A DNA stretch of 64,000 bases from Chthoniobacterales bacterium. Its GTDB lineage: Bacteria > Verrucomicrobiota > Verrucomicrobiia > Chthoniobacterales > Chthoniobacteraceae. Made by a program: the position numbers and the translations under genes. The notes under the pieces are model-generated. The model worked only from the letters and a program-made list of their open reading frames with translations, made no database searches and was not told the DNA's origin. The DNA lies in contig JBBQZX010000032.1 of assembly GCA_038207335.1 (NCBI GenBank), positions 1 through 64,000 on the forward strand, given 5' to 3'. The stretch's first letter is position 1, and the number at the start of each line of letters is the position of its first letter. Of the stretch, positions 1-16,568 are shown in pieces.

Positions 1-141
1 CCCTTCGAGCCCGCCTGCATCCTCGTCTATGGCCCCGGCAAATACCGCTTCCTCGACTACGTGAAAACTGGCCTCGGCCTGACGCTGATCCTCTCAGTCG
101 TGGTGCTGCTCCTCATCCCGCTCTTCTGGCCGCTGCGGTGA
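1..141 (+). CDS. 3' end of an SLC13/DASS-family permease (partial)
   Basis: Frame 1 reads PFEPACILVYGPGKYRFLDYVKTGLGLTLILSVVVLLLIPLFWPLR*, matching the typical VYGPGxYxFxD..G C-terminus with a final TM helix. Confidence 0.75.
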   Translation, partial: PFEPACILVYGPGKYRFLDYVKTGLGLTLILSVVVLLLIPLFWPLR

Positions 142-263
142 ACGCGGCTATGAAATCCGTCAACATTCTCGCCCATTCGCGGAGGTCCGATAAAGTCTTC
201 GCTAAAAGTCATGCGTAAGCCGCGTGTATCAGCCTGTGGAGCCGCGCGAGCGTGCGCGGTTAG

Positions 264-875
264 TTAGGTGAGGAAGCGATGTTTCACCCAGCCCCGGAAC
301 TCCTCGGTCGCCGACCGCAGTTGCACCGAATAGATGGACTCTCCGCGCTTCATCACCACGCCCTCGAAGAAATCGCAACCGAGCACGCGGTTCGCATCAC
401 GGAGCCGCTGGTAAAACGCGAGCGCATCGGCGTGCAAAACGCCGCGCTGGGCTGGCGTCAGCACCACAGCGCCGCATGGGACCGGGCGCGCAGTGTCGCC
501 GGCGAAGACGGCATCGCACGGGAGAAACGATTCGAGCAGCGCGCGTCTCTCCGTGTAAGGCGGTGTGCGGGATTTGGGCACGACGTGCGTGCCGCGTCCG
601 AGATTGTGGCGACGTTCAAGAGCCTCACAATCGGCCCACACGAGGCCACTTTGGGCGAGCTTCGCGAGAGCTGCAAGCGCGGGACGGAAGCAATCAGCGA
701 TGGTGAGCAGCGCGCCATGCCGATTCCACATCGTCCCGGTCGGCGTGTGGATGAGCGTTCGCCATCCATTCAGTTTCGGCTCGGCATACCACAGCCCGCG
801 CTTGGGTGGGGCGAGTTCGAGCCGACCACCCTGAATCGGCCGCGCCGGATACGTGATCAGTGGAGGCACGTTCAT
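264..875 (-). CDS. Minimal ATP-dependent ligase-type nucleotidyltransferase (adenylation domain only)
   Basis: Motif I EPKLNGWR, motif III DCE, motif IV EGVVMKR, motif V WVK; no OB domain. Confidence 0.75.
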   Translation of the reverse strand: MNVPPLITYPARPIQGGRLELAPPKRGLWYAEPKLNGWRTLIHTPTGTMWNRHGALLTIADCFRPALAALAKLAQSGLVWADCEALERRHNLGRGTHVVPKSRTPPYTERRALLESFLPCDAVFAGDTARPVPCGAVVLTPAQRGVLHADALAFYQRLRDANRVLGCDFFEGVVMKRGESIYSVQLRSATEEFRGWVKHRFLT

Positions 876-1091
876 GGGCTTGGAGCCTCCGTCTCGGAAG
901 GCCCGGATTTCTCATTTATCAGGCGAATTGGGCCTTCGATTTCCGCAGCGTAGGTGGAGATTGCCGCGCGTCTCGGAATCACGAACAGCCTTCTGATGGA
1001 TGGCTTTTGCGGCAGCATCGAGATCGTCGAGCGACACCACGCAACGCTCGTTACCTAATATCGTCAGGACGATGTGAGCGTCAGTCTTCAT
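872..1091 (-). pseudogene. Small hypothetical gene, probably frameshifted
   Basis: ATG overlaps the DUF6573-like 3' end (MKTDAHIVLTILGNERC...); an alternative frame reads AEIEGPIRLINEKSGPSETEAPSP* and ends overlapping the ligase start. Confidence 0.35.
905..946 (+). repeat. 42-bp diverged repeat, copy A
   Basis: GGATTTCTCATTTATCAGGCGAATTGGGCCTTCGATTTCCGC aligns without gaps to 13746-13787 and 27020-27061. Confidence 0.85.
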
Positions 1092-1669
1092 CGAGCATGA
1101 GGATTGTGATGGCAGGCCTCCGATCGTCGATGTCCAGCGGGCCACAAACGGCCTTGAGGGTGACCAGTGGCGGCGTCCGGTCGCGGTTGCCGTTGCGGAC
1201 ATGGAGCTTGAACGTCATCTGCGGTCCGCTCGTGCGCCGGGCGGTCATTCTGAGCATCCACACCACATCCCAGAGCCGGCCGCTCTCGTCCTGACAGCGC
1301 ACGCCATCGGGCACGCGCACGTAGTTCTCCCATACGGCGGGTGTAAGCAAGACCGGGAACTTTCAACCCGGCCTCGCGCGCGGTTTCGCTAACGTCCACC
1401 TGCATACCATCAGCGAGCGCATCCTTGCGCGTGTAGGCGTAGATCACTTCGGCACCAGCGAACGGGTCCTCAGCCTCATCCATCAGCGCGACGTTCTCGA
1501 TGTGGCGTGTAAGTGCATCGATGCGCTTGCTCGGCCACGGCACGAATTCCAGCGGGCCGTGGATGCGCTCCATCGCCTGCCGCAACTCCGCCGCCGATTC
1601 ATCATCGGCGGCGGTGAACACTGCAGCGAGGTTCGGGTTGCTCGTCGCCGTGTTCGTCGGTGAACTCAC
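1081..1669 (-). pseudogene. DUF6573-like mobile-element protein split by a frameshift near 1355
   Basis: IYAYTRKDALADGMQVDVSETAREAG in one frame continues as LTPAVWENYV...QDESGRLWDV...LKAVCGP...PAITILMLDED in another. Confidence 0.7.
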
Positions 1670-2019
1670 CCAGCGGCCATCAGCGCGAGCAGCGGCTCCA
1701 CTGCCGCTTCGGGAATCACATCGCCTTTGATCTTCAACTCGAATGACTGCTTGAAATACCGCGCGGCGTGCTCCCCGGCGAGCCGCGTGATGGCAGGCTC
1801 ATCGCTTGTGCCCCGGTAAGAGTTGGTGAACCCAACACGCACGACCTTGCCATCTGCCGAGCGCGCCTCGACCGACGATGCAATGGCGTGCTGCCCGTGG
1901 TGGTGGGTGAAGTAGAACGGCTTCGCGATGGCGATCAACTCGGCCTTCTCCAGTTCGAGCGTCACGTGACAAGTATGACGACTGAGACGACTGAGACGAC
2001 TGCCGTTTTTGCACTTCAA
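1666..2019 (-). CDS. Hypothetical protein (start uncertain)
   Basis: ORF stop overlaps the start of the DUF6573-like gene; plausible composition. Confidence 0.5.
   Translation of the reverse strand: MKCKNGSRLSRLSRHTCHVTLELEKAELIAIAKPFYFTHHHGQHAIASSVEARSADGKVVRVGFTNSYRGTSDEPAITRLAGEHAARYFKQSFELKIKGDVIPEAAVEPLLALMAAG
1977..2002 (+). repeat. Tandem 9-mer GACGACTGA, about 3 copies
   Basis: gacgactga gacgactga gacgactg. Confidence 0.85.
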
Positions 2020-2213
2020 CTTGGCCCAGAACCGCGCCGGACGCTGGGGGGCGCATGTTCACCCCGATTCGTCGCGATGCACGCGACAGGATGCACCAAT
2101 CGCCGAACGCGAAGTTTCTAACCAACGATTCCACCCGCGATTTGGTGCATCCCTTCACACACGACATTTCCAGCGGCGAACGACGAAAACCGGCAGCAAG
2201 GACAGCGCGCCCG

Positions 2214-2443
2214 AGGTGTAAAGCACGGGCACAAAACGGGATCACCTTACACCTCACATGCACAGCGATGAAGTGCCTCAAAAGCCCGCGAGTCCTGTGT
2301 TTATCAGCCTTGGGAGCTCACGAGCGCACGCTGGGAATGGGGTGATGGCCGTGCAAAAAGTGGAAGATTCAAAAATCGAATCCTCATAGAATTGAGGTGA
2401 TGGTCCCCCAACCCAAGTGGGAGGCGCTCGCTCGTAAAAGATT
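2214..2443 (+). repeat. Non-coding motif module, copy 1 (AGGTGTAAAG-N20-ACCTTACAC ... TCGTAAAAGATT)
   Basis: The same three motifs occur in the same order and similar spacing at 30503-30746. Confidence 0.7.
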
Positions 2444-2491
2444 ACCTTGCTCGATGCGCTCACACCTCTTCGTCAATCGGCGAAGCTCGTG

Positions 2492-4096
2492 CTATGGGCT
2501 ACCGCCAAAATGGCCTCTCCAATCCGTGCGCGATGAAAGCGCCTGGGGCTTGATGTCGCCGAGGCGCTGCCCCGCGTTGAAGCTGGCCTTGCAGAAGGCA
2601 TCGTAGGCGCCGCTGGCGATTCGGAAGCAGCGCAGCGGGCCGAGTTGGCTGAGATCGCGGCAGAGTGCGTAGTGCGGATTCTTCCGCAATTCTTCGTCGA
2701 GGCGCGCGGTGAATTCTCGCGGCAGTTCACCCTCCGCGAACAAGGTGTAATTCCAGCTCCCGGCGGCATCGACCTCCGGCGCGAGCATGGCAAAACGTGG
2801 GACGAAGCCGAGCGATGCACACACCGTCTTGGTGGCGCGCGTGACGAAAGTCTCTGCGAGTTTTTCCCCGCACAAATCCGACACGCTCCCGCCGCGGCCG
2901 AGAAAGCGCAGTGACGGCGTGGCGGCAATGAAGCCGTCCACTTCCACCAGGTCGCCGAGGCGGTAGCGCCACAGTCCGCCGGCGGTTGTCACGATCACTT
3001 CGTAGATCTCGCCCGCGCGCAACTCGTGCGCGAGCCGCGGCTCGCCGCTCGCGTCGGTGAATTCGTAGAAGTGCGACGCCACGGCGACGGGATGCTGTCC
3101 GCAGAATGGGATGGAGACGAACGCCTCGGTTGCCAGCAGTCCCTTTGGCTGGACGACTGCGCGCGGTAAGCGCCGCCGCAAATCAGCGAGTGCGATCGTG
3201 GCCTGCCCGTCGCCCCAGCAGCTCACGATTCGCAGACGCGGCCAGAGCGTGTGGGCATCCACCGGGTCGGCGCGGTGCAGTTCTCTCGCGCGTTGCGGAT
3301 TCGGCGGTGCGTCCACGGCGCAGCGGACTTCCGGCGGTAGCACCGAGGTTCGAGCGCAGCCTCCGCGTTCCACATCTTGCAGCAACTCATCCCACCACGC
3401 GGGCAGCGCATCCAACAGCAGGGTGAGAAACGACGGATGCCAGACGGACACGAGCCGCAGCTCACGTTGGCGCAGCAGGCAGAGGAGCGTGACGTAACGC
3501 GAGCTTTCCACATCGCCAACGAGCCGCAACGCGGATGGCACCGCGAAGGACGCCTTGACGAATCGCCGCCGCAGACCGCCGACGTAGGCGCTGTCATCGT
3601 CGAAGCCCACGGGCACCGCAGACTTTTCGGCGGACGCCGGTATCGCGGGTGAGATCGACCAATATGCTGGGCCGAGGGCGATCGAGGGATTCTGTCGGCA
3701 GAGGTCCACTATCCACGGACCGATGGCGGCGTTCAGCTCGCGCTGAAATGTGGCGGTGAACGGAATGAGCTTGCGCCCGCCGGTGGAGCCGCTCGTCGGC
3801 AGGAGGCGCATCACGGGCTCAACGGTCAGCACGGACTGTTCGCCCCGCACGATGCGTGCGACCCACGGCTCGAGCGCCTCGTACTCCACGACCGGCACGC
3901 GCTCGCGGAATTGCTCGTAGCTGCGGATTTCGCCGAAGCCGTAAGCGCGGCCATACGCGCTCGCCGCGTTGCTCGTGAGGAGTCGGCGCAAGATTTGCCG
4001 CTGAGATTTCTCCGGGTCGTGCAGTGCCCGGTTGAAGCGCATCCACGCCGGGATGCTCGTGGCGAGCCACGCGCAGTTGGCGATGGCAGCCTTCAT
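2492..4096 (-). CDS. GH3 family acyl-adenylate-forming (amido)ligase
   Basis: TSGSTGGRKLIP P-loop, GLLATE, YEVIVTTAGGLWRYRLGD, FLGR...GEK motifs; start set at MKAAIANC, which overlaps the upstream stop. Confidence 0.9.
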   Translation of the reverse strand: MKAAIANCAWLATSIPAWMRFNRALHDPEKSQRQILRRLLTSNAASAYGRAYGFGEIRSYEQFRERVPVVEYEALEPWVARIVRGEQSVLTVEPVMRLLPTSGSTGGRKLIPFTATFQRELNAAIGPWIVDLCRQNPSIALGPAYWSISPAIPASAEKSAVPVGFDDDSAYVGGLRRRFVKASFAVPSALRLVGDVESSRYVTLLCLLRQRELRLVSVWHPSFLTLLLDALPAWWDELLQDVERGGCARTSVLPPEVRCAVDAPPNPQRARELHRADPVDAHTLWPRLRIVSCWGDGQATIALADLRRRLPRAVVQPKGLLATEAFVSIPFCGQHPVAVASHFYEFTDASGEPRLAHELRAGEIYEVIVTTAGGLWRYRLGDLVEVDGFIAATPSLRFLGRGGSVSDLCGEKLAETFVTRATKTVCASLGFVPRFAMLAPEVDAAGSWNYTLFAEGELPREFTARLDEELRKNPHYALCRDLSQLGPLRCFRIASGAYDAFCKASFNAGQRLGDIKPQALSSRTDWRGHFGGSP

Positions 4097-4809
4097 CCCG
4101 CGACCATCCGGCGACCGGCGGGCGTGAGATTGGCCGCGCTGATTTCCGTGATGCAAACCAGCTCATCGCCGCTGGTGTGGCCCGGGTTTCGAGCAAGGAA
4201 GAGCGCCACATGTGCGTCATCGGTGCGCCCTGTCGGCAAGGTAGCGAGCGGCCCGCAAAGTTTTTGCGGATGAGAAAAGCGCACGATGCCCGCCGCCGCG
4301 TCATACCCTTCGCGGTAGCGAACGGCCGCCAGATAATCGAGGAGTTGCTGTTCGCGAGGCGGCGTCAGTGCATCGTGGCGTGGATAAAATTCGCGCCAGA
4401 AAACCGGCAGAAAACGGTAGGTACGAAAGCCCGAGGTGAGCAGCAGCCAGTAGCATGGGCGCGCTGGAAAGGCGGCACGCAGATGGTTCACCGCCGCGAT
4501 CCAGGTGCGCGCCAAAACGGGGGATCCCCAAGCCTCGGGTGCGACGATTGTGTCGCCGGAGTAGATCACCGTAAGGGCGCGCCCGGCGTGCCGTTCCTCG
4601 CAAACGAGCAACGTGGAAAAGCCGAGCAGCCGCCCGTCGCGGCGGATCTCCACGACCCAGTTTTTCTCGGTGAGATCGCGCTCGAACTGGTCGCGCATCA
4701 CGCCATCAAAGTGACGCGAAAGGAGCGCAAACATCTCGTCGCGCTGCGTGTCGGCGAGTGCCTCGCGCGGGAAAAGGCCGGGGATCTTCTGGGACGGTGC
4801 ATCGGTCAT
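4093..4809 (-). CDS. Hypothetical protein, probable GNAT-like fold
   Basis: LLGFSTL, IYSGDTIVAPEAWG, YWLLLTSGFRTYRFL; translationally coupled on both sides. Confidence 0.65.
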   Translation of the reverse strand: MTDAPSQKIPGLFPREALADTQRDEMFALLSRHFDGVMRDQFERDLTEKNWVVEIRRDGRLLGFSTLLVCEERHAGRALTVIYSGDTIVAPEAWGSPVLARTWIAAVNHLRAAFPARPCYWLLLTSGFRTYRFLPVFWREFYPRHDALTPPREQQLLDYLAAVRYREGYDAAAGIVRFSHPQKLCGPLATLPTGRTDDAHVALFLARNPGHTSGDELVCITEISAANLTPAGRRMVAG

Positions 4810-5927
4810 AACAATGCGACGTCTGGCAGAAACGGGGCCTGCGTTTCGATCAGCTCAAGCGGCGTGCGTTCCGGCCAATCTACACGGTAGAGCCGGCTCG
4901 TCCAAGTTCGCGTGGAGAACCGCCGACGCATCACCGGAAGACGCGTATCAGTTGCGGGCAGCATGACCGTGAGAAATTCGACACCGAGACAAGCCGCCCA
5001 TGGAAAGAATGCCGCCACAAAATCCGGCAACACCGCGCCGACTCCGTCTGCAAATGCGAGCGGCGAGAGGAAGGCGTGTGCGAGAGCGGAGTTGGGGCGT
5101 GGCAGGCGCGGCGTGCCAAGAAAATGACTGACGAAGTTCATGATCGGTCGTGCGGCCGAAAGCGCCTTGGCATACCCACGGATCACGGTTTGCCGGAAGC
5201 CGCGCTGATCCCACAGCCCGCCACACGCGACGACTTTGCCGCCATCGATGGCGAGGAGAAATCGATCCAGCGGCAGCCCATGATCTTCAAGAGCGAGCAG
5301 CCTTTCCTCGGTCCAGACCGCAGCGAGTTGATGGCGTCGTGCGTGATCATTCAGCACGCGCAGCATCTCGGGAATGCGCTCCGGCTTGGCAGCCTCGACA
5401 CGGAGCTCCGACGCGCGCGGCCGGCTCGGCACGGCAACGAGCAGCGTGGCCAATTCCGCCAGAAATTCATATCCGGGAAGCCCCCGCGCGCCGCGTTCCA
5501 GCAGTCGGCGGGCGCGGTCGTTGTCGGCGGCGATGCTTGTAAAATAGAGGCTCGCCGGGTCATCGCGTTGCAACTCGTGAAAGAAGCGGTAGCCGTCGCG
5601 GAGGATGCTGAAACGTCCGCGCGCCGCCGCATCGAGCCGCAGTTCGGCGAGATAGCCCACGCGACGCAACGCGCCATTCATCCAGCATTCTCGCTTCGTG
5701 CAGCGACCCATGCAGACAAGCTTTTCGTTTTCAAAAGCGACGATCGTGTGGTCCTCGCCGCTCCCGAGATTTGCACCGCGAAAGTAATCCGGCTCGCGCT
5801 CGAAGCTGAGGCTGATCGCGCCGCGCATCGGATTGTCGCGCAGCAACCGACGAATCGCGGAATCGTCCGCCTCGGTCGCAACTGCGAAATGCGTGCTCAG
5901 TTCGCGGTCAGCAGCGGCCCCTGCCAT
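4806..5927 (-). CDS. Tandem-GNAT-like acyltransferase
   Basis: VGYLAELRLDAAARG acyl-CoA-binding-like motif, TSIAADNDRA; second lobe VVACGGLWDQ. Confidence 0.7.
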   Translation of the reverse strand: MAGAAADRELSTHFAVATEADDSAIRRLLRDNPMRGAISLSFEREPDYFRGANLGSGEDHTIVAFENEKLVCMGRCTKRECWMNGALRRVGYLAELRLDAAARGRFSILRDGYRFFHELQRDDPASLYFTSIAADNDRARRLLERGARGLPGYEFLAELATLLVAVPSRPRASELRVEAAKPERIPEMLRVLNDHARRHQLAAVWTEERLLALEDHGLPLDRFLLAIDGGKVVACGGLWDQRGFRQTVIRGYAKALSAARPIMNFVSHFLGTPRLPRPNSALAHAFLSPLAFADGVGAVLPDFVAAFFPWAACLGVEFLTVMLPATDTRLPVMRRRFSTRTWTSRLYRVDWPERTPLELIETQAPFLPDVALL

Positions 5928-7255
5928 GATTCGTCTCCAAGCGGAAAGTGATTTCGTCCGCTCACATCGGCACGGTGCATTTGGTTGATCAGAAAGAAGT
6001 TCCGCCACATGAAACCGTTCGCGCGGTTCACTGCATCGAAGCCGCGGCGTGCGATGCTTTTCCACGAATAAAAACGCCGCCGCGCGCCGAGGCAGCCGCG
6101 CTGCAATTCCTCCGCGCTCATGCCGTGCGGCGTGAAGGGAATTTGGTTGTAGGTGTAGCGGTCATCGAGCCACCACGCGTCGTAGCTCAGCCGATTTTCC
6201 GTCGCCAGCCGACGGTAGAGCGGCGTGCCGGGGAAGGGCGTGAGGTGATTGAACGCGGCGATATACATCGCGTGCTCCTCGGCAAAATCGACGGTCTCGG
6301 CGAAGCTCGCGGACGTGTCGCCATCGTAGCCGAAAACGAACGTGCCATAGACCCGGACGCGATGTTTCCGCAGATTCGCGAGCGCCTTTGTGAAGCCGCC
6401 GCGCGCCGTGTTGAAGGTCTTGTTCATCGCCGCAAGATTCGCGGGATTCAGGCTCTCGAAACCAATGAGCACACCCTGGCAACCGCTACGCACGAGCAGG
6501 TCGAGGAACTCCTCGTCGTGCGCCGCGTTAATGCTCGATTGCCCGACCCAGCGAATTTTCAGCGGGATGAGCGCGCGGAAGAACTCCTTCGCCTGCGCGA
6601 GGTTCGACGTGATGTTGTCGTCCACAAAAAAGAAGAGCTTTTTCTGGTTCTTGATCGCCGCCACTTCCGCGAGGATTTGATCCGCTGGCCGGCGCGTCTG
6701 ACTTTGTGAAAAGACCGTCTGCACCGCGCAGAAGTCACATTTGAAATGGCAGCCGCGCCCAGCTTCCACGAGGCCGATGGGGAGGTAGCGTTTGCCTTTG
6801 AAGATCGAGCGGTCGGGCTGCAAGCCGTCGAGCGATGGGCGGCTTTCGGAGCGATAGAATTTCTCCAGCCGTCCGTGCCGCGCGTCATCGAGCACTTCCG
6901 GCCACACGGTTTCCGCTTCACCGATGACCACGGCCTCGGCGTAGCGTCCGACTTCATCCGGGCAAAGGCTTGCGTGGAAGCCGCCCATCACGACGGGCAC
7001 CCCGCGGCGGCGATATTCGCTCGCGATCTGGTAGGCGCGTTTTGCCGTGTAGGTCTCGACACTCATCGCCACGAGGTCCGTCGGCTCGTCGAACGGGATC
7101 GTCTCCATGCGGTCGTCGTAAAAGCGCACCTCGACCTCTTGCGGCGTCAGTCCGGCCACCGTCGCGGCAGGGAGCGGCTCCATCTGCCAGGTGCGCACAT
7201 AGCCGCTATCACCGCGCCGGCGCCCGATGCAGGGATGGACGATCGTGAGCCTCAT
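5897..7255 (-). CDS. B12-binding domain radical SAM enzyme
   Basis: N-terminal cobalamin-binding domain (DLVAMS..VVMGGFHAS..GEAE), CHFKCDFC triad, FVDDN, IGFES, LTPFPGTPLY. Confidence 0.93.
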   Translation of the reverse strand: MRLTIVHPCIGRRRGDSGYVRTWQMEPLPAATVAGLTPQEVEVRFYDDRMETIPFDEPTDLVAMSVETYTAKRAYQIASEYRRRGVPVVMGGFHASLCPDEVGRYAEAVVIGEAETVWPEVLDDARHGRLEKFYRSESRPSLDGLQPDRSIFKGKRYLPIGLVEAGRGCHFKCDFCAVQTVFSQSQTRRPADQILAEVAAIKNQKKLFFFVDDNITSNLAQAKEFFRALIPLKIRWVGQSSINAAHDEEFLDLLVRSGCQGVLIGFESLNPANLAAMNKTFNTARGGFTKALANLRKHRVRVYGTFVFGYDGDTSASFAETVDFAEEHAMYIAAFNHLTPFPGTPLYRRLATENRLSYDAWWLDDRYTYNQIPFTPHGMSAEELQRGCLGARRRFYSWKSIARRGFDAVNRANGFMWRNFFLINQMHRADVSGRNHFPLGDESWQGPLLTAN

Positions 7256-8613
7256 GCGTGTGCGATTTCGACCGCGAGCGGCGCGGATGGTGCGCGACCG
7301 ATGATCCAATCGCAGTTGTAGAAACGGCTGAGATTTTGCGCGTAAAAACGGTAGCCGAGATTCGTGCCGATTCGCACCGGCCACGGCGCGGGCGAACGAC
7401 TGATACGGCGGACAATCGACTTCCAGCTGTAGGCGTGATTCCACGCGGTCTCGATCCCGAGTTGCAGCTCCTCCACGCTCATGTGGCGCGGCTGGAAGAC
7501 GACGTGCTGCGCGTCGTAGAGCTCCCAATCCTTGGTGAGGATGCGGCCCTCGGCCTCGAGCCGTTTGTAGAGCGGCGTATTCGGAAACGGTGTCACCACC
7601 GCGAAGCGCGGAAGGTCGATGCCGGCCTCCACGGCAAACTCCGCGGTCTTCATGAAAATGTCCGGCTTGTCGTCATCCAGGCCGAAGACGAAGCAGCCTT
7701 GCAGCGCGATTCCATGCGCGTGCAAACGCTCCACGACGCGGCCGTAATCGTCCGGCGAATTGAAGCCCTTGTGGTTCTGTTTAAGATTCGTCGCGGAGAT
7801 GGATTCGAGACCCATCAGCAATCCCTTGCAACCGCTGCGGCCCGCCAGTTCCAGAAGCTCGGGATCGTCCGCGAGCAACACCGTGGCAAGGCCATACCAC
7901 TGCAAGCGGAGGGGGATAAGCGCGGTGAAAAGCGCCAGCGCATAACCGCGGTGCGCGATGAGATTCAGGTCCACGAAGATGAGCTTTCGCGCGCCGTGCT
8001 GCCGGATGTCGGCGACGACTTCGGTGACTGGTTTTTGAAAAGGCTTCCGTCCCCACGCCGTCGGCACGACGCAGAAATCGCAGCTATGCACGCAGCCCCG
8101 CGTCGCCTCAAAAACATTGCTGGTGAGGAAGTGTTTCGTTGGCAGCAAGTCGCGGCGCGGAAAGGGCCGCCCGCCGATCTCAAGGCCGGCGGCCTGCCGG
8201 TATTGCCTGACCATTTTTCCGGCGACGAAATCGCGCAGGAGCTGCGGCCACGAGTCCTCGGCGTAGCCGATCACCACAGCATCCGCGTGTGGTTCCGCGT
8301 CCTCGGGGATGAGCGTGACATGCGGCCCACCCAACACCACCGCGATGCCGCGCGCGCGGAAATGATCTGCTAATTCATAAGCCCGCCGCGCGGTGCCGGT
8401 GATGACCGTGAGCGCGACCAAGTCCGCGTCGAGATCGAGCGGCACATCAGCAATTCCTTCGTCGATAAGCTGCAGCTCCGCGGGCACGTCGTCCGGCACC
8501 AACGCGGCGAGCGTCGTGAGCGTGAGCGGTTGGTACCGAAGCGACTTTTTCCAAATGCCGCCGCGATGCCGGTAAAGCGGGCCTTTGGGAGAGACAAGTG
8601 CGATTCGAATCAC
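7252..8613 (-). CDS. B12-binding domain radical SAM enzyme (second paralog)
   Basis: VVLGGPHVT, CVHSCDFC triad, MGLES, VTPFPNTPLY. Confidence 0.93.
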   Translation of the reverse strand: MIRIALVSPKGPLYRHRGGIWKKSLRYQPLTLTTLAALVPDDVPAELQLIDEGIADVPLDLDADLVALTVITGTARRAYELADHFRARGIAVVLGGPHVTLIPEDAEPHADAVVIGYAEDSWPQLLRDFVAGKMVRQYRQAAGLEIGGRPFPRRDLLPTKHFLTSNVFEATRGCVHSCDFCVVPTAWGRKPFQKPVTEVVADIRQHGARKLIFVDLNLIAHRGYALALFTALIPLRLQWYGLATVLLADDPELLELAGRSGCKGLLMGLESISATNLKQNHKGFNSPDDYGRVVERLHAHGIALQGCFVFGLDDDKPDIFMKTAEFAVEAGIDLPRFAVVTPFPNTPLYKRLEAEGRILTKDWELYDAQHVVFQPRHMSVEELQLGIETAWNHAYSWKSIVRRISRSPAPWPVRIGTNLGYRFYAQNLSRFYNCDWIIGRAPSAPLAVEIAHA

Positions 8614-8772
8614 GATCGGAAGCTATGCACGGCGACACTGAGCGGCATCATTGAAAAAACACGACTCAAGCATCGGCTTTTCGATTACCCAGCCGCGCGG
8701 GCATCAAGGTATCTATCCAAACGCCGCCGCACTCACGATGAACGCCGTCGGTCATGAAATTGAAGATGCCAC

Positions 8773-9669
8773 ATGATGACTGAATCCACTTCGCTCAATG
8801 ATGCGCGGATTGATTTCAGTCGGCGCTTCATCGCCGAGGAATTCACGCCACTGTTTCATACCCGCGAATACCGCGCGCTGCCCGATGCGGCGAGGCTGCG
8901 CTACAACCAGCTTCACGCGCTCTACTTCAACGAGCAGGTTTCGTTTTTCGAGCAGGAGATGCTCAGCCCCGCCTTGCTCGCACTGCTGCGCGGTCCGCTC
9001 CCCGCGAGCTTGGCCGAAGGGTTGCGGGTTTTTTTCGACGAAGAACAGCGGCACACGGCGGTGTTCCGCGCACTCAACCGCGACTGCGCGCCGGAACTCT
9101 ACGCAAGCAGCAATCACCACTTCATCCGAATCGCACGTCCATGGCGGGCGCTGCTCGGCGCTATGGCGGGCATGCCGCGTTATTTCCCGCTGATCATTTG
9201 GCTGGCACTGATGCAGGAGGAGCGCTCGCTCCATTACTCGAAAGGCTGCCTCGAAAAGGCCGCTGAACTGGAGCCGCATTTCGTCGCGACCCATCGGGCG
9301 CATCTCGCCGACGAGGTGGGCCACGTCGGCTGGGATGAGGAGCTGCTTGATTGGTTGTGGCCGCAGGTCGGGCGCGCCGTGCGATTCGTAAATGCCCGAC
9401 TGCTCTCTTGGATGATCGGCGAATTTTTTCTTTTGCCGAAGCGCTCCGGCCTGCGTGTCGTCGAGCAACTCGCGCAGGAGTTTCCGCAACTCGACGCCAC
9501 AACTCTGCGACGCGGGATGGACGCGCTGAGTGATGACACCGAATACCTGCAAACGCTCTACTCCCGCGAAATCACGCCGCGCACCTTTGCGCGCTTCGAC
9601 ACCCATCCCGAATTCGCGTTGCTCGCGCGAACGCTGCCCGGCTACCGTCCCGCCGGTTCCGCAAGGTGA
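8773..9669 (+). CDS. AurF-like ferritin-fold diiron oxygenase
   Basis: Ligand pattern FFE, DEEQRH, QEE, HLADEVGH. Confidence 0.8.
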   Translation: MMTESTSLNDARIDFSRRFIAEEFTPLFHTREYRALPDAARLRYNQLHALYFNEQVSFFEQEMLSPALLALLRGPLPASLAEGLRVFFDEEQRHTAVFRALNRDCAPELYASSNHHFIRIARPWRALLGAMAGMPRYFPLIIWLALMQEERSLHYSKGCLEKAAELEPHFVATHRAHLADEVGHVGWDEELLDWLWPQVGRAVRFVNARLLSWMIGEFFLLPKRSGLRVVEQLAQEFPQLDATTLRRGMDALSDDTEYLQTLYSREITPRTFARFDTHPEFALLARTLPGYRPAGSAR

Positions 9670-10574
9670 AAGCTTACCGCATCCCCGCACGTCTGAATCT
9701 CTGCATCGCCGCAGCGCAACTCCTCGCCATGCTCGCGATGCTCTGGGCTGCCGGGCGCGCGACGAACTGGTGGGCCGTGGCGCTGCTCGCTCTCGGCTAC
9801 GGCGTGGTGATGAACTCCGCCTACGCGATGCTGCACGAGGCGGAGCACGGCATGCTGCACCCGCGGCACGGGGTGAACGATGCGGTCGGCACGGTGCTCG
9901 CGCTGTTTTTTCCCGCGCCGTTTCACCTGATCCGGCAGGGGCACATCGGACACCACATTCGCAATCGCAGCGACGATGAAGCGTTCGATTTGTATTTTGA
10001 AGACGAGAGCCGGTTTTGGAAATGCGTGCAGCTCTACGGCACGCTCACGGGACTTTTCTGGGTGCTCATTTTCATCACAAACGTCGTCGTCCTTTTCGTC
10101 CCGTCTCTCGCCGTGCCTGCGCGCATCAATCGGACGACGGACGCCTTTCTAGAATCGCTGAACCCGCGTTATCGGCGGCTCATTCAGGCGGAGGCACTCG
10201 CCGTCGTCGCGCTGCACGCGGGCCTCGTGTGGGCGTGGCACATTCCGCTCGCCCACTACTTCGCGGTGATGTTCAGCTTCGGCTTCCTGTGGTCGGCGAT
10301 GCAATACGCGCACCACTACGGCACCGAGCGCGATGTGCTGAAAGGCGCGCGCAATCTGCGGACCTTTCGCCTGCTCGACCTCGTCTGGCTGAACCACAAC
10401 TGGCATCGCAATCATCACGCGCAGCCGACCGTGCCGTGGGTGCATCTGCCACGGCTCGATGATTCGCGGGAGCCGCGGGGCAGCCTGCTCCTTGCGTACG
10501 GCAAAATGTGGCACGGTCCGCAGCCTGCGACAGAGCACGTCGAGAATCGTTTCGCGGGAAAGGTCATCCAATGA
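9666..10574 (+). CDS. Membrane fatty-acid desaturase family protein
   Basis: Three His boxes HEAEH, HIGHH, HRNHH plus TM segments. Confidence 0.9.
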   Translation: MKAYRIPARLNLCIAAAQLLAMLAMLWAAGRATNWWAVALLALGYGVVMNSAYAMLHEAEHGMLHPRHGVNDAVGTVLALFFPAPFHLIRQGHIGHHIRNRSDDEAFDLYFEDESRFWKCVQLYGTLTGLFWVLIFITNVVVLFVPSLAVPARINRTTDAFLESLNPRYRRLIQAEALAVVALHAGLVWAWHIPLAHYFAVMFSFGFLWSAMQYAHHYGTERDVLKGARNLRTFRLLDLVWLNHNWHRNHHAQPTVPWVHLPRLDDSREPRGSLLLAYGKMWHGPQPATEHVENRFAGKVIQ

Positions 10575-11557
10575 ACCGCGCGCCATCGGTTGACCTCTTC
10601 GCGCAATATCCGGCGTCGTGGTATCACTTCGGCGCAACTCGCGAACTCGCGCGAGGGCCGGTGTCGAAGCCGATGCTGGGTCGGCAGCTCGTGGCGTTTC
10701 GCGGGGAAAGCGGCACGCTCGCGGTGATGGATGCGCGGTGCTCTCACATGGGCGCGGACCTCGGCTGCGGACGCGTCGATGGTGAAGCGATCGTCTGCCC
10801 GTACCACAACTGGCGCTACAGCTCCGACGGCATCTGCACGCGCGCCCCGGGCGTCGAACACCCGCCGCGATTCGCGCGCCAGCAGACGTTCCCCGCAGTC
10901 GAGCGCCACGGATACGTGTTCTTTTTCAACGGCCCCGAACCGCTCTTTCCGCTCCCGTTTTTCCTCGGTGAAAATGCCGATGATTACGCCGCTGGCCACG
11001 TCTTCCGATACGTCGCGGATTGCTCGTGGTTCGTGAATTCCGCGCACGCTTTCGACCGGCAACACTTCGACGCAGTGCATGACCGGCGGCTCCTCGGGCC
11101 GCCGGAGATCGACGGTCCGGCGCCATTCGCGCGGCGCAATCGCTACCGCGCCGAAGTGCTCGGGCGCACACCGCTCGATCGCGTGCTGCGAATCGGGGCC
11201 GGCAAAATCGTCGAGATTTCACTGACCGTTTGGGGTGGCACTTTCGTCTGTATCACTGGCGATTTCGGGCGAACGCGCAGCCGCTTTTTCATGATCACGC
11301 GCCCGCTGGAAAACGGTCACACGCTTTGCGAAGGCATTGTCTTCGCCCCCAGCCCAGCAAACCCACTCGCGCTGTGGATGCGGCGATTTTTCACGCACGG
11401 CTATCTCGCCGACGAAGCGCAGCGCATCCGAGGGACGCGGTACGACGCGGCGCGTTTCGTCGAAGCCGACGCCGACATGATCGACTACTTCCACTGGCTC
11501 GTCGCGCTGCCCCAAGAGACCGCGACCACGCCGCAACCCGAACCCGCCCTCGCATGA
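10571..11557 (+). CDS. Rieske [2Fe-2S] non-heme iron oxygenase alpha subunit
   Basis: CSHMGADL...CPYHNW Rieske motif; DRQHFDAVH mononuclear iron motif. Confidence 0.9.
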   Translation: MNRAPSVDLFAQYPASWYHFGATRELARGPVSKPMLGRQLVAFRGESGTLAVMDARCSHMGADLGCGRVDGEAIVCPYHNWRYSSDGICTRAPGVEHPPRFARQQTFPAVERHGYVFFFNGPEPLFPLPFFLGENADDYAAGHVFRYVADCSWFVNSAHAFDRQHFDAVHDRRLLGPPEIDGPAPFARRNRYRAEVLGRTPLDRVLRIGAGKIVEISLTVWGGTFVCITGDFGRTRSRFFMITRPLENGHTLCEGIVFAPSPANPLALWMRRFFTHGYLADEAQRIRGTRYDAARFVEADADMIDYFHWLVALPQETATTPQPEPALA

Positions 11558-12132
11558 AAACCAGACTCCTCGCCACCGCACTCGCGTGCCTTTTCGCCAT
11601 CGTCGTCCACGCGGAGGAAGACCCCGCACACAACGAACTCCGCGCGGTGCGCGACGGTCTGCTTGCCGGCATGAACAGCGGCGACATCGACGCGCAACTC
11701 GCCTTTCTCCATCCCAACGTGGTCGTGACCTGGCACAACGCCGAGGTGAGCCGCGGGCGCGAGGGCGTCCGCAAATATCTCGACCGAATGCTCAACGGGT
11801 CGTCGAAGGTTGTGCAGAAATTCGGCGCAGAGGTGAAGGTGGACGAACTCAGCATCCTTTACGGCGGCGACACGGCCATCGCGTTCGGGAGCGCGCAGGA
11901 GCACTTCACTCTCGCGGCCGGACGCTCTTTCGACTTCACCGGACGCTGGTCCGCGACGCTCGTAAAGGACGGCGGCAAGTGGCTCGTCGCGAATCTGCAC
12001 ACGTCAGACAACATTTTCGACAACCCGTTGCTCAACGCGGCGACGAAAGCGCTTTGGTGGGCCGGCGGCGGCGCGTTGTTGGTTGGACTGTTCGGCGGCT
12101 GCCTGCTCGGGCGACGCGCTCGACGCGCGTGA
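11554..12132 (+). CDS. NTF2/SnoaL-like protein with signal peptide and C-terminal membrane anchor
   Basis: MKTRLLATALACLFAIVVHA signal; RWSATLVKDGGKWLVANLHTS NTF2-type end; TM helix followed by RRARRA. Confidence 0.8.
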   Translation: MKTRLLATALACLFAIVVHAEEDPAHNELRAVRDGLLAGMNSGDIDAQLAFLHPNVVVTWHNAEVSRGREGVRKYLDRMLNGSSKVVQKFGAEVKVDELSILYGGDTAIAFGSAQEHFTLAAGRSFDFTGRWSATLVKDGGKWLVANLHTSDNIFDNPLLNAATKALWWAGGGALLVGLFGGCLLGRRARRA

Positions 12133-12164
12133 CGCGCGTGACGCGCGTGACGCGCGTGACGCAC
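12122..12164 (+). repeat. Tandem 9-mer GACGCGCGT x4 spanning a stop/start overlap
   Basis: Four exact copies at 12122-12157 followed by gacgcac. Confidence 0.9.
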
Positions 12165-13103
12165 TTTTTTCCCGAGCCCGCAAACGGCGACGAACGCGAG
12201 CTTTTCCAGAGCATCGCGCGGTGGGATGGCCCGCGTGAACTCGCTGTACTGACGCCGGAAATGTTGCGCGAGCTGACCGCGCGACACGGCTGCGACTTCG
12301 CCACGGCGCTGCTGCATCGGCGCATCGTCGAGTCCGATGCGCATTCGCCATTTCTGCGTGAATTGCGTAACGAGCCGTCCTCAGCTCCGCCCCGGGACGT
12401 GCGCGTGGTCATCGTGCCCGGCGCATTTTACCGAGAGAATCCCCGCACCGGCGCAGACGGCCGCATCGCCCGCGAAGTGGCTTCCCAGCTTGATCTACCG
12501 GTCGTCGTCGCGCCGGTCTCAAGCACCGGCGGGCTCGCGGAGAATGCGCGCATCCTGGCCGAGTGGCTGACCACCCAGCGCGAAGAGCCGCTGATTCTCG
12601 TCTCGGTGAGCAAGGGCGGCAGCGACGTGAAGAGCGCGCTGGCTCGTCCCGACGCGGCTCGCGCGTTTGCGCGCGTGATCGGGTGGGTGAATCTCTGCGG
12701 CATCCTCGACGGCACGCCCATGGCCGACTGGCTGCTCTCCCCCGCCTTGCTCGCGCGGGCGAATCGCTTCGTCTATCGCATCCGCGGGCGCTCGCTGGAT
12801 TTCCTCGCGGACATGAGGCGCTATCCCGGTTGCCCGCTCGACTTCCCACTCGCGATTCCCGCCCATCTTCGCGCCATCCACGTCGTCGGCTTCCCGCTGC
12901 GGCGGCATCTTCGCAATGGTCTGGCTCGGCGATGCCACACGCGGCTCGCAGCGTTCGGACCAAACGACGGCTCCATCCTGCTCGCCGACGCGCCCCACTG
13001 GCCCGGTCAGCTCTGCCCCGTTTGGGGTGCTGACCACTACCTCCGCCCGCGCGCAGACGTGCGTCCACTGCTTGCCGCGCTGCTCCGTTCCCTCGCGACG
13101 TGA
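12129..13103 (+). CDS. Alpha/beta hydrolase-fold protein
   Basis: VIVPG oxyanion region, SVSKGG nucleophile elbow, NDG acid, ADH histidine. Confidence 0.75.
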   Translation: MTRVTRVTRVTHFFPEPANGDERELFQSIARWDGPRELAVLTPEMLRELTARHGCDFATALLHRRIVESDAHSPFLRELRNEPSSAPPRDVRVVIVPGAFYRENPRTGADGRIAREVASQLDLPVVVAPVSSTGGLAENARILAEWLTTQREEPLILVSVSKGGSDVKSALARPDAARAFARVIGWVNLCGILDGTPMADWLLSPALLARANRFVYRIRGRSLDFLADMRRYPGCPLDFPLAIPAHLRAIHVVGFPLRRHLRNGLARRCHTRLAAFGPNDGSILLADAPHWPGQLCPVWGADHYLRPRADVRPLLAALLRSLAT

Positions 13104-13768
13104 AGCATCCGTTCATCGCGTGGCCCGGCTGGCCGTTTCTTCGCTTCGCGTGGCTGCTCTCCGCGGCCAATGGCGTGTGGTTCGCCATCGTCTATGGCGG
13201 CTGCGACTGGCTCACCGCGCACCGCACCGTGCTCGTGCCGATCCATCTGCCTATCGAGCTTTCCATCCCGCTCGTTCCAAGCGCAGTGCTCGCCTACATG
13301 AGCATCTACCTTTTGTTTCTCGGCGGCCCTTTCATCGTCCGAGACCGACGGGAATTCGCAGCGTTAATATCCGCCCTCGCCCTCGCGACGCTCATCGGCG
13401 GCATCGGTTTTCTCCTCATTCCATCGCGAGCTGCGTTCGCTCCGCCCGGAGAACTCGGGATATGGAGCGGTCTCTTCCATTTCGCCGATCAACTCAACCT
13501 CGACTACAACATGGTTCCGTCCCTGCACGTCGCATTGTCTGTGTGCTGCACAGCCGTTTTTGCACGCCGTGCGTCGCAGCTTGGGCGCGTCCTGATGTGG
13601 ACTTGGGCCGGCACGATCGCACTCTCGACGCTGCTGACGCATCAGCATCACATCGTCGATGCCGTCACCGGCTGGGCCGTCGGAATTGTCTCCTATCGGG
13701 TCGCATGGTTGCGTATCGCGAAATGGAGAGTCTTAAAAGAGCGCAGGATTCCGCATTTATCAGCCTGA
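13100..13768 (+). CDS. PAP2 superfamily membrane phosphatase/phosphotransferase
   Basis: PSLHVA (C2) and HQHHIVD (C3) motifs with multiple TM helices. Confidence 0.85.
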   Translation: MKHPFIAWPGWPFLRFAWLLSAANGVWFAIVYGGCDWLTAHRTVLVPIHLPIELSIPLVPSAVLAYMSIYLLFLGGPFIVRDRREFAALISALALATLIGGIGFLLIPSRAAFAPPGELGIWSGLFHFADQLNLDYNMVPSLHVALSVCCTAVFARRASQLGRVLMWTWAGTIALSTLLTHQHHIVDAVTGWAVGIVSYRVAWLRIAKWRVLKERRIPHLSA

Positions 13769-13787
13769 TCCGCCCTTCGATTTCCGC
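13746..13787 (+). repeat. 42-bp diverged repeat, copy B
   Basis: GGATTCCGCATTTATCAGCCTGATCCGCCCTTCGATTTCCGC; contains the PAP2 stop codon; similarity to copy A extends about 40 bp further. Confidence 0.85.
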
Positions 13788-13902
13788 GTCGAGGGTGGAG
13801 GGATTAGCGCTCGTCTCAGATTCACGAACGGTCTTCCGATACCAACACGGGAAACGCCCACCGGCTCGGGGCCAGCGGGCGCTTGCGTTCCATCGGCTTT
13901 GC

Positions 13903-14442
13903 TCAGCTCTCGGGCAGATCGTCGAACAGGCCGGGTTGAAAGGGCTTCAACGCCTTCTGCTCTTCGCGGAAGAAGTCGGCCTTGGTCTTGCCCTTTCGCT
14001 TCCCCTTCAACCTGTGGCAGTCGAACGCATACTCCGGCACGTCCTCGCGGTCTGCGGCCAGTAGATCGGCGGCGAGTTTGTCGGCATCAAGACCCGCGCA
14101 TTTGTCATAGACGAAGTTTTGCAGGTGGTCGGCATCCCGGTTCTTCTTCGCCGCGCACAGGAGGATCACGGCCTTGCTGATGAAGATGCGGCCCTTGGCC
14201 TGCTTGGCCGGCACGTTGGCGTTCACAAGGGCGTAGCCATCATGGAGCGCCTTCACTTCCTGAGTGAGTATTCCCCAGCAATCTTCGGCTGAACTGTGAG
14301 CAGGCGCTTCCAGACATAGTTCCCATAACCACTGGCCCACACCTCCAAGGCCCAATAGCCCGCAAGGCGAGTGTCCCCGCGGCGAATGGCCTTCTGCATT
14401 GCCGAGGCCGAACTCATAGCCTCGTTTAGTTAGAAATCGCAT
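13903..14442 (-). pseudogene. RarA/MgsA C-terminal-like mobile-element gene, frameshifted (copy 1)
   Basis: MRFLTKRGYEF start preceded by TAAGGA; SAMQKAIRRGD in a shifted frame; EDCWG...KNRDADHL...PEYAFDCH. Confidence 0.65.
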
Positions 14443-14446
14443 GTCC

Positions 14447-15016
14447 TTATGGTCGTTCGCCGAGCACGTTGGGCCAAAAAGAAAGGAGGGTGTTGAGGGG
14501 TGCTTCGAGCGGTCGCGCGTTGATGGTAAAGACATAGCTTTCCCTCGTCGTCCGGCCCTCGCGGAGTCCAACCCCCTTGAGCAGCTCGTCCCACTTCGGC
14601 ACGCCGCCGTTCGCATCGCGCACAACCCCGACTGCGCCACCAACCCAATGATGAACACCAAACGGATAATTGCGCTGGAGCAGGCGTGGATCGCTGCTGA
14701 TGCCATCCGAACAGCCGCGCTTCGGCGCCGCGCGCGCTGTAGGCGGAGTTTTCAAGCATGGCGAGAGTCTCGTCGGTCGAGAGCTTGCGGAAGCGCAGCG
14801 ACACCATGCAAACGCAGGCCGTGATGTCGTCGTCGAGCATCACGATCACGTCCTCGGTAAAGCTCCGCAGAATCCAATTCCGCACCGCACTCACCCGCTC
14901 ACCGCATCGGGAATCGTCACCTTCACCAGCGGGACGTGCGCGTAGTCAGTCAGTTCGCTTTCCGGCACGACGAGCGTTGCGGTCGGGAGCAGGCGATGGC
15001 TGTTGATCGACCGCGG
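14447..15016 (-). pseudogene. GT-A fold glycosyltransferase remnant (TAGT/GREB1-like), multiply frameshifted
   Basis: TLVVPESELTDY / VRNWILRSFTEDVIVMLDDDI / SDPRLLQRNYPF..WVGGAVG segments read across frameshifts. Confidence 0.5.
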
Positions 15017-15173
15017 TTACAGTGAATGCTGAGTCACTCATTTTCGGCCTAGACCCGTGATCAGTTTGTGAATCTCGCTCTTTTATGCGCAAGCCGACTG
15101 ATGCGACGGCACCGGCGCACGGCCGCTGCGTTGCGCGGGAGCGACTCAGGCGGAAATGAGCCGGATCGGCTTT

Positions 15174-16568
15174 CTACGCCCCTACCAGCTCGCGGATCGG
15201 CACGCCGCTATCGGTCACGCTGCGCGGGCGGTTCAGCGGGTCGAGGAACTCTGCGTTGGGCGCGATGCCGAGCAGGTGAAAAATCGTGGCGGCGAGTTCC
15301 GGCGGGCGCACGGGATGCGCGTCGGGCACGCCGCCGATGCGGTCGCTCGCGCCGATAATTTGGCCCCCGCCGAGCCCAGCGCCCGCGAGGGCGACGGAGA
15401 AGCACGAACCCCAGTGATCGCGCCCGCCTTCGCCGTTGATCTTCGGCGAGCGACCGAATTCACCCATCGCGACGACAAGCGTTTCGTCGAGCAGCCCGCG
15501 CGTCGCGAGATCTTCGATGAGCGTGGCGAAGGTGCGGTCGAACTGCGGGCAGAGCACGTCGCGCACACGCTCCGCGTTGTTGCGGTGCGTGTCCCAAAGC
15601 GGACTGCCTTTGAGTTCCGCGGCGCCCTCGCGCGGCCAGTTTACTTGGACGAGCCGCGTGCCGGCCTCGATCAGCCGCCGCGCGAGCAGCACGCTCTGGC
15701 CAAATTTGTGCGGCCCGTAGGCCTCGCGCAGCGCAGGCGTTTCTCGCTCCATCTGGAACGCCGCACGGCTTGCATCGGAATGCAGAAGATCGAACGCCTT
15801 TTGATGCATCTGCCCCAACTCCGCGACCGCACCGCTTTGCGCGCCCGCGCGAAAATGCGCGTCGAACTGATGCAGCAAATCGAATCGCTCGGCAAGTCGC
15901 AGCGTCGTCATCTCTTCCGAAAGACTCATGCCCTCAATGTGCATCGGGATCTGCGTCGGGTCGCATTTCATCAGCATCGGATGCCACGGCGCGCCCATGA
16001 ATCCGCCGTTCTGGCACGGCCACAAAATGTTCCCGTCGTTCGCGAGCACCTCCGGCAGCACGACCGACGAGAGCGGCGACCGCGTGCTCGGCTTCAGTGC
16101 GCCGACGACCGACGCGATGCTCGGCCAATCCTGCGGCCCGGGCGGGACGTTCTCCGCTTTGCTCGCCGGCACGTAGCCCGAGAGCATGAAAGCGCCGCTC
16201 GTCGAGTGCGAGTGGATGTCCGTCGTCATCGAGCGGATGATCGCGAGCCGATGCGCGACGCGTGCGGAGTGCGGCAGTGTTTCGGAAAAATGTAGGCCAG
16301 GAACGCTCGTCGGGATCGATCGAAAATCACCGCGCACTTCGCGAGGTGCATCCGGCTTGGGATCCCAAGTCTCGTGCTGCGGCGGCCCGCCCGCGAGGAA
16401 AAGAATGATGCAGGATTTCGCCCGGCCAAAGCTCGCAGTTTTCCCGATTTCCGCCGCCATCGCCTGCTGCCTCCACAAGCCCGGCAGCGAAAGTCCGAGG
16501 CAACCTAGCCCGCCCACGCGCAGCCATTCTCGGCGCGTCAAGGATGGTCCGGGGCAGGCGTTATGCAT
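15174..16568 (-). CDS. DUF1501 domain protein with Tat-like RR signal
   Basis: LTRREWL; GGPPQHETWDPKP; ARRLIEAG; WDTH; GEFGRSP; GRDHW. Confidence 0.92.
   Translation of the reverse strand: MHNACPGPSLTRREWLRVGGLGCLGLSLPGLWRQQAMAAEIGKTASFGRAKSCIILFLAGGPPQHETWDPKPDAPREVRGDFRSIPTSVPGLHFSETLPHSARVAHRLAIIRSMTTDIHSHSTSGAFMLSGYVPASKAENVPPGPQDWPSIASVVGALKPSTRSPLSSVVLPEVLANDGNILWPCQNGGFMGAPWHPMLMKCDPTQIPMHIEGMSLSEEMTTLRLAERFDLLHQFDAHFRAGAQSGAVAELGQMHQKAFDLLHSDASRAAFQMERETPALREAYGPHKFGQSVLLARRLIEAGTRLVQVNWPREGAAELKGSPLWDTHRNNAERVRDVLCPQFDRTFATLIEDLATRGLLDETLVVAMGEFGRSPKINGEGGRDHWGSCFSVALAGAGLGGGQIIGASDRIGGVPDAHPVRPPELAATIFHLLGIAPNAEFLDPLNRPRSVTDSGVPIRELVGA

Follow-up and report, generated by a model that had tools for sequence, protein, structure and literature searches.

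A stretch of 64,000 nucleotides from a Chthoniobacterales bacterium (contig JBBQZX010000032.1, positions 1-64,000; the window) carries at 2492-13768 a cluster of eleven genes, which we found to be one copy of a bacterial gene cluster that is patchily distributed across phyla. Its constant core consists of three probable amide-forming enzymes, namely a GH3-family ligase and two GNAT-type acyltransferases (GNAT1 and GNAT2); the core is accompanied by a pair of B12-binding-domain radical S-adenosylmethionine enzymes (rSAM1 and rSAM2) and by oxidases, an alpha/beta hydrolase, an NTF2-fold protein and a PAP2 membrane protein, which are swappable accessories. We put the probability that the cluster is a mobile pathway, and that its product is a lipid with several amide links and radical modifications, at about 0.5.

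A search with rSAM1 gave 259 genome matches, of which the best 80 loci were examined; the counts among them are lower bounds, as many contigs end early. Within 10 kb of rSAM1 we found rSAM2 in 78 of these loci, GNAT1 in 69, GNAT2 in 65 and GH3 in 63, and further the desaturase (46), the Rieske oxygenase (44), the NTF2 protein (37), the hydrolase and PAP2 (29 each) and the AurF-like protein (18). All eleven genes occur together in nine of the loci L001-L185, including that of the cultured Chthoniobacter flavus Ellin428 (L047), and on one metagenome contig (L106) the gene order is identical to that of the window. The nearest named relatives are Chthoniobacteraceae; the core is also present in Chloroflexota, Acidobacteriota, Planctomycetota, Gemmatimonadota, Bacillota and Proteobacteria. 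An initial annotation, made from the letters of the window alone, had treated the genes as one system and had named co-occurrence in other genomes as the test of this view, which the co-occurrence across phyla supports.

A locus sample based on rSAM1 is biased toward rSAMs; a second sample was chosen by GNAT2 alone. We examined 20 of the 21 other GNAT2 matches in the host phylum and found GNAT1 in 20, GH3 in 19 and at least one B12-rSAM in 18. In Burkholderia and Acinetobacter the core trio has no B12-rSAM at its side, and the pair is dispensable in the loci L081, L084, L096 and L102; the rSAM pair as an indispensable core was rejected, since in some hosts the core does without it. A plasmid collection contained 12 records with GNAT2, four of which were examined. 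In Burkholderia arboris the core is joined by PAP2-desaturase, hydrolase-like, PF10118, desaturase and Rieske genes and by no rSAM, and in Citrobacter by five rSAMs, while Azospirillum has a distant GNAT2 alone, with neither GH3 nor GNAT1 nearby. The gene order in Acinetobacter baumannii (L084, 7141-14820) is HlyD, MFS, GNAT2, GH3, outer-membrane efflux protein and GNAT1, i.e. an EmrAB-like pair upstream of the core and an efflux gene inside it; in a paper on what is probably the same pump, the channel gene is reportedly absent from the pump operon. As B. arboris has core and accessories without any rSAM, the accessories follow the core and not the rSAMs. In addition, there are two natural GNAT2::GH3 fusions (P0121 and P0122, 40% identical to each other); a longer or fused form of GNAT1 was not found, which is weak evidence. 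The persistence of the core without rSAMs and the fusions together argue that the minimal unit is the three probable amide-forming enzymes. The proposal of the initial annotation that the cluster tailors a host fatty acid or lipid thus survives in part: a lipid-like substrate is probable, but mere tailoring is not what we now favour, because a core of this kind likely builds its own scaffold.

The GH3 protein combines the GH3 domains with the three nucleotide-binding motifs of the family, here TSGSTGGRK, LATE (LLATE) and GLWRYRLGD, which are described elsewhere as SSGTSxGxxK, YGSSE and GLYRYRLGD (PMC12493201). Residues G103, K109, E324, G374, R377 and D382 are kept in 56 of 56 orthologues, and plant GH3 structures are matched with E 8e-25; by its sequence, the protein likely forms amides in an ATP-dependent manner. 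For GNAT2, comparison of the model with known structures left NatD, Gcn5 and LasI tied (Z 11-12), and the fold search singled out no nearest family. The best fold match of GNAT1 is yeast N-myristoyltransferase (NMT; 2P6E, Z 23.0, root-mean-square deviation 3.6, 306 residues aligned), and the alignment runs through the last residue of both proteins (373/455). The mycobacterial tandem GNAT 7Q3A is effectively tied with it (Z 22.0). The C-terminus of GNAT1 is fixed as an [ED]xxxL-type pattern, with E or D exactly five residues before the end in 86 of 88 copies and a terminal Leu in 83 of 88. In NMT the general base is the C-terminal carboxylate of Leu455, as described in PMC4964394; the NMT-like fold and the fixed C-terminus would match GNAT1 to this base, the position of its carboxylate being read from the range of the model alignment, and would make it a tandem GNAT of the NMT type. 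It differs from the eukaryotic enzymes in its identity of ~10%, in its bacterial small-molecule-type operon and in that no protein target was found for it; its sequence falls outside the NMT families, with no Pfam NMT match and a profile search of the PDB that stayed empty at E 10.

Both rSAMs, which are 37% identical, have a B12-binding domain and the CxxxCxxC motif of class B radical SAM enzymes, and the motif is kept in 77 of 77 rSAM1 and 67 of 67 rSAM2 orthologues. Enzymes of this architecture also include cyclases and desaturases. The two are the most conserved genes of the cluster (median identity 79% and 78% compared to 44-58% for the core genes; 60 loci), and they match no named family in NCBIfam or in the PDB comparison, where rSAM1 has only distant matches (6FD2, 9CCB). 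The named equivalogs HpnJ, HpnR, BchE and the ladderane B12-rSAM were rejected, with 88 bits at best against NCBIfam cut-offs of 251-750. Four or five B12-rSAM paralogues surround a single core in L051, L053, L065, L079, L082 and L194.

In 10 of the 20 phylum loci we found no oxidase, but between one and three additional non-B12 rSAMs that lie within the operon or next to it. The profiles used for them were built from the same loci and therefore count presence without proving family. Four of the longer extra rSAMs were scanned, and in all four TrsS and Tes were the two best NCBIfam families, well under cut-off; the four best score 83-98 bits on the Tes model NF045702 (cut-off 450), and we rejected them as Tes equivalogs. 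One was compared with the PDB and matched Tes/GDGT-MAS best (E 8.7e-18), while a shorter subtype is placed less clearly. L089, L096, L097, L101 and six other phylum loci have up to three Tes/TrsS-like paralogues and small membrane proteins within the operon. Tes, Grs and Ted are described as modifying inert carbons of lipid tails (PMC13459092; bioRxiv 10.1101/2025.10.20.683597). Among the GNAT2 loci of at least 16 kb (n = 77), 56 contain oxidases without extra rSAMs, 6 show the reverse, 3 have both and 12 have neither. A heme-copper oxidase is encoded by six of six hosts of the oxidase version and by two of the remaining eight hosts; of the ten hosts with extra rSAMs, eight have none above cut-off, one has a strong and one a weaker match. 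Nine of the extra-rSAM phylum loci fall into one 12-row clade of a quick tree (SH-aLRT 99) and L038 lies elsewhere, so that the ten loci perhaps reflect two events. We consider it likely that aerobic hosts tailor the product with oxygen-dependent enzymes, and apparently anaerobic hosts with additional radical enzymes.

In the accessory enzymes of the window, catalytic residues are conserved among orthologues. The AurF-like protein resembles AurF and CmlI in seven residues (E60, E91, H94, E150, H177, E181 and H184) that are invariant in 21 sequences and, aligned to 3CHH, correspond to the four Glu and three His which we take to be the AurF metal-ligand set. It differs from them in its profile matches (3CHH and 5HYG, E about 1e-5), in its presence in only 18 of 80 loci and in that no arylamine-supply gene is among the recurrent neighbours of the cluster loci. 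The initial annotation had cited the family for N-oxygenation of amines; for arylamines this is no more than a possibility here, as the metal ligands are what speaks for it, and the corresponding Burkholderia cluster has another Pfam family, PF10118, in its stead. The His boxes of the desaturase are conserved in 45 of 45 sequences, with the exception of H247 (32), and C76, H79, D162, H165, H170 and D300 of the Rieske protein in 33 of 33; the best PDB match of the latter, KshA, is limited to the Rieske domain. The NTF2 protein, read by eye, starts like a signal peptide and ends in a hydrophobic stretch with an Arg tail. For the hydrolase there is no Pfam match; its profile match is the esterase MGS0156 (5D8M, E 3.6e-12), and its relatives in the ESM Atlas are PGAP1/LCAT-like clusters. 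Of its triad, Asp280 and His303 are present in 22 of 22 orthologues and Ser161 in 19, the other three (L016, L025 and L039) having Cys as nucleophile. A 9-base unit repeated four times in frame at the NTF2/hydrolase junction (12129-12164) encodes VTR repeats at the hydrolase start, which is therefore uncertain; a close orthologue in L069 is without the repeat, which arose by local duplication or by a slip in the assembly.

PAP2 lacks, in 31 of 31 rows, the Kx6RP of the phosphatase motifs, which we take to be KxxxxxxRP and SRxxxxxHxxxD, and the motif Arg is replaced by Thr in 30 rows and by Cys in one; a role as lipid phosphatase was rejected. Instead, this PAP2_3 protein carries PSLH and STx5Hx3D, the latter presumably the motif of inositol-phosphoceramide (IPC) synthases, as in the IPC-synthase/AUR1 type, and by its sequence it looks like a head-group transferase. 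It is not the equivalog of the bacterial model NF052609 (14 bits, E 0.019; cut-off 480). In other loci, including those of further phyla, most accessories next to the core are lipid enzymes: extra desaturases, a fatty-acid hydroxylase, cytochromes P450, a PlsC-type acyltransferase, a fusion of acyl carrier protein, ligase and acyltransferase, a GDSL lipase and squalene-synthase-like domains, the last adjoining the PAP2 gene, fused to it or lying close to the cluster in L048, L070 and L196. A membrane protein with hexapeptide-like repeats, absent from the window, recurs with the desaturase/AurF arm in relatives (L010, L033, L034, L036, L037, L040, L071, L076, L087, L090 and L095).

The layout of the cluster agrees with what the initial annotation had described, i.e. 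eleven intact genes in two divergent operons with overlapping neighbours. All eleven open reading frames (ORFs) are without internal stops; the minus arm is transcribed, by coordinates, in the order rSAM1, rSAM2, GNAT1, GNAT2 and GH3, the plus arm in the order AurF-like, desaturase, Rieske, NTF2, hydrolase and PAP2 (Table 1). Eight of the nine gene junctions are 4-base overlaps, and GNAT1 and rSAM2 overlap by 31 bases. The earlier family assignments hold as well: nine assignments exceed Pfam cut-offs (GH3, both rSAMs, AurF, FA_desaturase, Rieske, SnoaL/DUF4440 and PAP2_3 families), both GNATs lie below cut-off and have GNAT folds in predicted models, and the hydrolase is placed by its profile match. 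The absence of scaffold enzymes was likewise borne out, with no polyketide synthase, nonribosomal peptide synthetase, terpene cyclase or carrier protein within the cluster; a crude motif scan of 204 loci revealed no carrier protein either. A promoter scan found no sigma-70-like site between the arms, and this intergenic DNA is not conserved among the fetched loci. Searching the host genome with tblastn gave no paralogue of any cluster gene, except that rSAM1 and rSAM2 match each other. The probable source run was the sole sequencing run listed as containing this DNA, and no RNA run was among those listed.

Table 1. Genes of the cluster and the region between its two arms (positions in the window)
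Feature	Position	Strand	Remarks
GH3-family adenylating ligase	2492..4096	-	534 amino acids (aa); core; Pfam GH3/GH3_M/GH3_C above cut-off
GNAT2, single-domain GNAT acyltransferase	4093..4809	-	238 aa; core; AlphaFold2 (AF2) pLDDT 94.4, predicted GNAT fold
GNAT1, tandem-GNAT, N-myristoyltransferase-like acyltransferase	4806..5927	-	373 aa; core; AF2 pLDDT 93.7
rSAM2, B12-binding-domain radical SAM enzyme	5897..7255	-	452 aa; Pfam B12-binding + Radical_SAM
rSAM1, B12-binding-domain radical SAM enzyme	7252..8613	-	453 aa; Pfam B12-binding + Radical_SAM
Divergent intergenic region, presumed promoters	8614..8772	.	159 bases between arms
AurF-like ferritin-fold dimetal oxygenase	8773..9669	+	298 aa; accessory; Pfam AurF 40 bits, cut-off 29.6
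His-box membrane desaturase/hydroxylase	9666..10574	+	302 aa; accessory; Pfam FA_desaturase E 1e-28
Rieske non-heme iron oxygenase	10571..11557	+	328 aa; accessory; Pfam Rieske
NTF2/SnoaL-fold protein	11554..12132	+	192 aa; accessory; Pfam DUF4440/SnoaL_2
Lipase-type alpha/beta hydrolase or O-acyltransferase	12129..13103	+	about 315-324 aa; accessory; profile match 5D8M
PAP2_3 membrane protein, inositol-phosphoceramide-synthase type	13100..13768	+	222 aa; accessory; Pfam PAP2_3 43 bits

Mobile-element remnants flank the cluster (264-2019, 13774-14894 and 27048-28887). On the left there are an ATP-dependent-ligase-like fragment and a DUF6573 gene, split or frameshifted as judged by eye; on the right there is a fragment of the phage family phrog_16866, a second copy of which (74%) lies beside an integrase at 27577-28887, and 905-997 resembles 13746-13840 (77%). 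The flanks are disrupted, as had been noted before, and are better described as mobile-element remnants than as the pseudogenes they had been called. In relatives (L002, L005, L006, L011, L012, L014, L017, L045 and L069), the cluster has insertions within it or next to it, in many cases separating the two rSAM genes; they are genes of the PIN-type toxin-antitoxin, UPF0175, Uma2 and Wadjet kinds. Further to the right, 15174-24180 holds DUF1501, WD40 and other large minus-strand genes that are typical of Planctomycetes-Verrucomicrobia-Chlamydiae bacteria and unrelated to the cluster. The host has a B12-domain frame of MetH size (1289 codons), a cobalamin riboswitch and no cobQ above cut-off in its genome, so that it probably acquires B12 by salvage, as far as its sequence tells. 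It also encodes a squalene-hopene cyclase. Serine palmitoyltransferase is absent from the cluster; four of the nine PF00155 matches of the host were scanned, and the only one of the oxoamine-synthase type is nearest to BioF (398 bits; Spt 272 bits, cut-off 640).

Among the closest known systems is that of Singulisphaera acidiphila, where a bacterial GH3 (OlsH) and an alpha/beta hydrolase (OlsI) are described as using free fatty acid and ATP to make ornithine lipid (PMC12493201). There, too, GH3 forms an amide from acid, ATP and amine, an alpha/beta hydrolase of the same operon serves as O-acyltransferase and no carrier protein takes part. In contrast, the ols operon, as far as its available description goes, is without the two GNATs, the two B12-rSAMs and the three oxidases of the window, where, moreover, the hydrolase is of an optional type (29 of 80 loci). 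Orthology of the window GH3 to OlsH was rejected (48.1 bits on NF052613, cut-off 620). Of the lipid-modifying rSAMs GrsA/GrsB, HpnP/HpnR, Ted and Tes, the rSAMs of the window resemble GrsA/GrsB as a paralogous pair with B12 domains, to which relatives of the cluster add Tes-like rSAMs; they reach the cut-off of no NCBIfam model, and the likeness is one of domains and pairing. The next-nearest GH3 of the plasmid collection (31% identity) is from a Streptomyces plasmid (L204) and forms the longest branch of our GH3 tree, a quick, midpoint-rooted one from which we draw neither a donor nor an order of events. Plasmid searches found no GNAT1 or GNAT2 homologue in this record, which encodes at 1-15380 a polyketide synthase, a P450, an aminotransferase, the GH3, an F420 oxidoreductase and a second threonyl-tRNA synthetase, presumably a borrelidin-type cluster with the GH3 as BorL. 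Searches of the literature outside MIBiG, subscription journals and supplements revealed no paper on the cluster, and the initial annotation had likewise recognised no characterised pathway; in its available text, PMC12971839 discusses GH3 solely for OlsH. We read the cluster as an uncharacterised form of GH3/GNAT amino-lipid synthesis.

From the genes, predicted folds, catalytic residues, co-occurrence and accessory swapping observed above we infer all substrates and products of the following scheme. The core likely makes a lipid by amide-linking acyl chains and amino acids or amines that the host supplies, and the other eight products likely methylate or cyclise, oxidise and O-acylate this lipid and cap it with a phospho-head-group. 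GNAT2 would N-acylate an amino acid with an acyl-thioester as donor; GH3, its fusion partner, would adenylate the carboxylate of the GNAT2 product with ATP and condense it with a second amine; and the NMT-like GNAT1 would attach a long acyl chain to a free amine, the carboxylate at its own C-terminus serving as base. The B12-rSAM pair would most likely C-methylate two positions at unactivated tail carbons, with ring closure or desaturation as alternatives, and the desaturase, Rieske and AurF-like enzymes could introduce double bonds or hydroxyls with O2. On a hydroxyl the hydrolase may place a second chain, as OlsI does, PAP2 may transfer a phospho-head-group from a phospholipid, and the anchored NTF2 protein may keep the product at the periplasmic face. 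That the steps follow each other in exactly this order is doubtful. Equally speculative, and rather improbable as a whole, is a serine-palmitoyltransferase-independent route to a ceramide-like phospho-amide lipid, with three amide-forming enzymes, one of them a bacterial enzyme of the N-myristoyltransferase type, and with B12- and tetraether-synthase-like radical enzymes that would methylate the tails, form rings in them or cross-link them.

Several observations weigh against a lipid pathway. The cluster is found in 0 of 10 genomes of the same genus, 2 of 36 of the same family and 22 of 401 of the phylum (host counted), and it sits among mobile-element remnants, which is unlike a housekeeping lipid; genes for the supply of amino acids, amines or acyl groups are not among its conserved members. 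Short-chain acetyltransferases come near the NMT score of GNAT1 (Z 20-22), and the fold match does not fix function. The GH3 is no OlsH (48 versus 620 bits), and the plasmid GH3s next in similarity come from Streptomyces; the one that we examined is part of a polyketide cluster, where it may do no more than activate an acid. Finally, the A. baumannii locus, with an efflux gene in the operon, MFS and HlyD upstream and no membrane enzymes, points to export. The same core could accordingly make a small exported acyl-amide (a signal, surfactant or antagonist) that is diversified by the accessories and is not a membrane lipid. The A. baumannii pairing of core and pump, the patchy distribution, the toxin-antitoxin, Uma2 and Wadjet genes inserted in relatives, the missing supply genes and accessories that vary as strongly as in specialised metabolism would all fit such a product; however, a transporter is conserved nowhere among the best 80 loci, and the version of the window has three membrane or anchored proteins, including the PAP2 of head-group-transferase type. 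We regard an exported product as unlikely, though it is the main rival of the lipid reading.

If the cluster instead acted on a host isoprenoid, GH3 would activate a hopanoid- or prenyl-derived acid for conjugation and oxidation, and the rSAMs would be HpnP/Grs-like methylases or cyclases. The squalene-hopene cyclase of the host, weak DUF4070 matches of the rSAMs, the squalene-synthase-like domains near PAP2 and the isoprenoid chains on which Tes and Grs act would be in line with this, as would the steroid enzymes that are the best matches of the Rieske protein. On the other side, the KshA match is limited to the Rieske domain, all hopanoid rSAM models stay well under cut-off (HpnJ 87 versus 578 bits, HpnR 49 versus 650), and the core occurs in Acinetobacter and Citrobacter, which we take to be free of hopanoids, so that we judge this reading improbable. 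In the least probable reading, and in our view a very improbable one, GNAT1 would truly be NMT-like and would lipidate a protein or ribosomal peptide at its N-terminus, the other enzymes preparing the unusual acid for this. NMT is indeed its best fold match, in the same C-terminal register, and B12-rSAMs are able to methylate peptides (a weak ApyD match was seen), but gene clustering of the 80 loci (ORFs of at least 70 aa) brought up neither a short ORF nor a target gene that is conserved, the intergenic DNA varies between loci, and PAP2, hydrolase and desaturase suggest a free lipid.

A mobile pathway to a multiply amide-linked lipid would matter beyond this host. The core is present in about 5% of the sampled genomes of the host phylum and in other phyla too, yet we found no product in print. 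The cluster offers an unnamed, unusually conserved B12-rSAM subfamily, an NMT-like enzyme from bacteria and a subfamily of GH3 that differs from OlsH, and the question of its product is directly testable, because the full set of eleven genes is present in a cultured strain (C. flavus Ellin428) and the core also occurs in minimal versions of three genes. If the ceramide-like route were true, interchangeable aerobic and anaerobic modules could be a source of unexplained branched and cyclic lipids in soils, peats and sediments.

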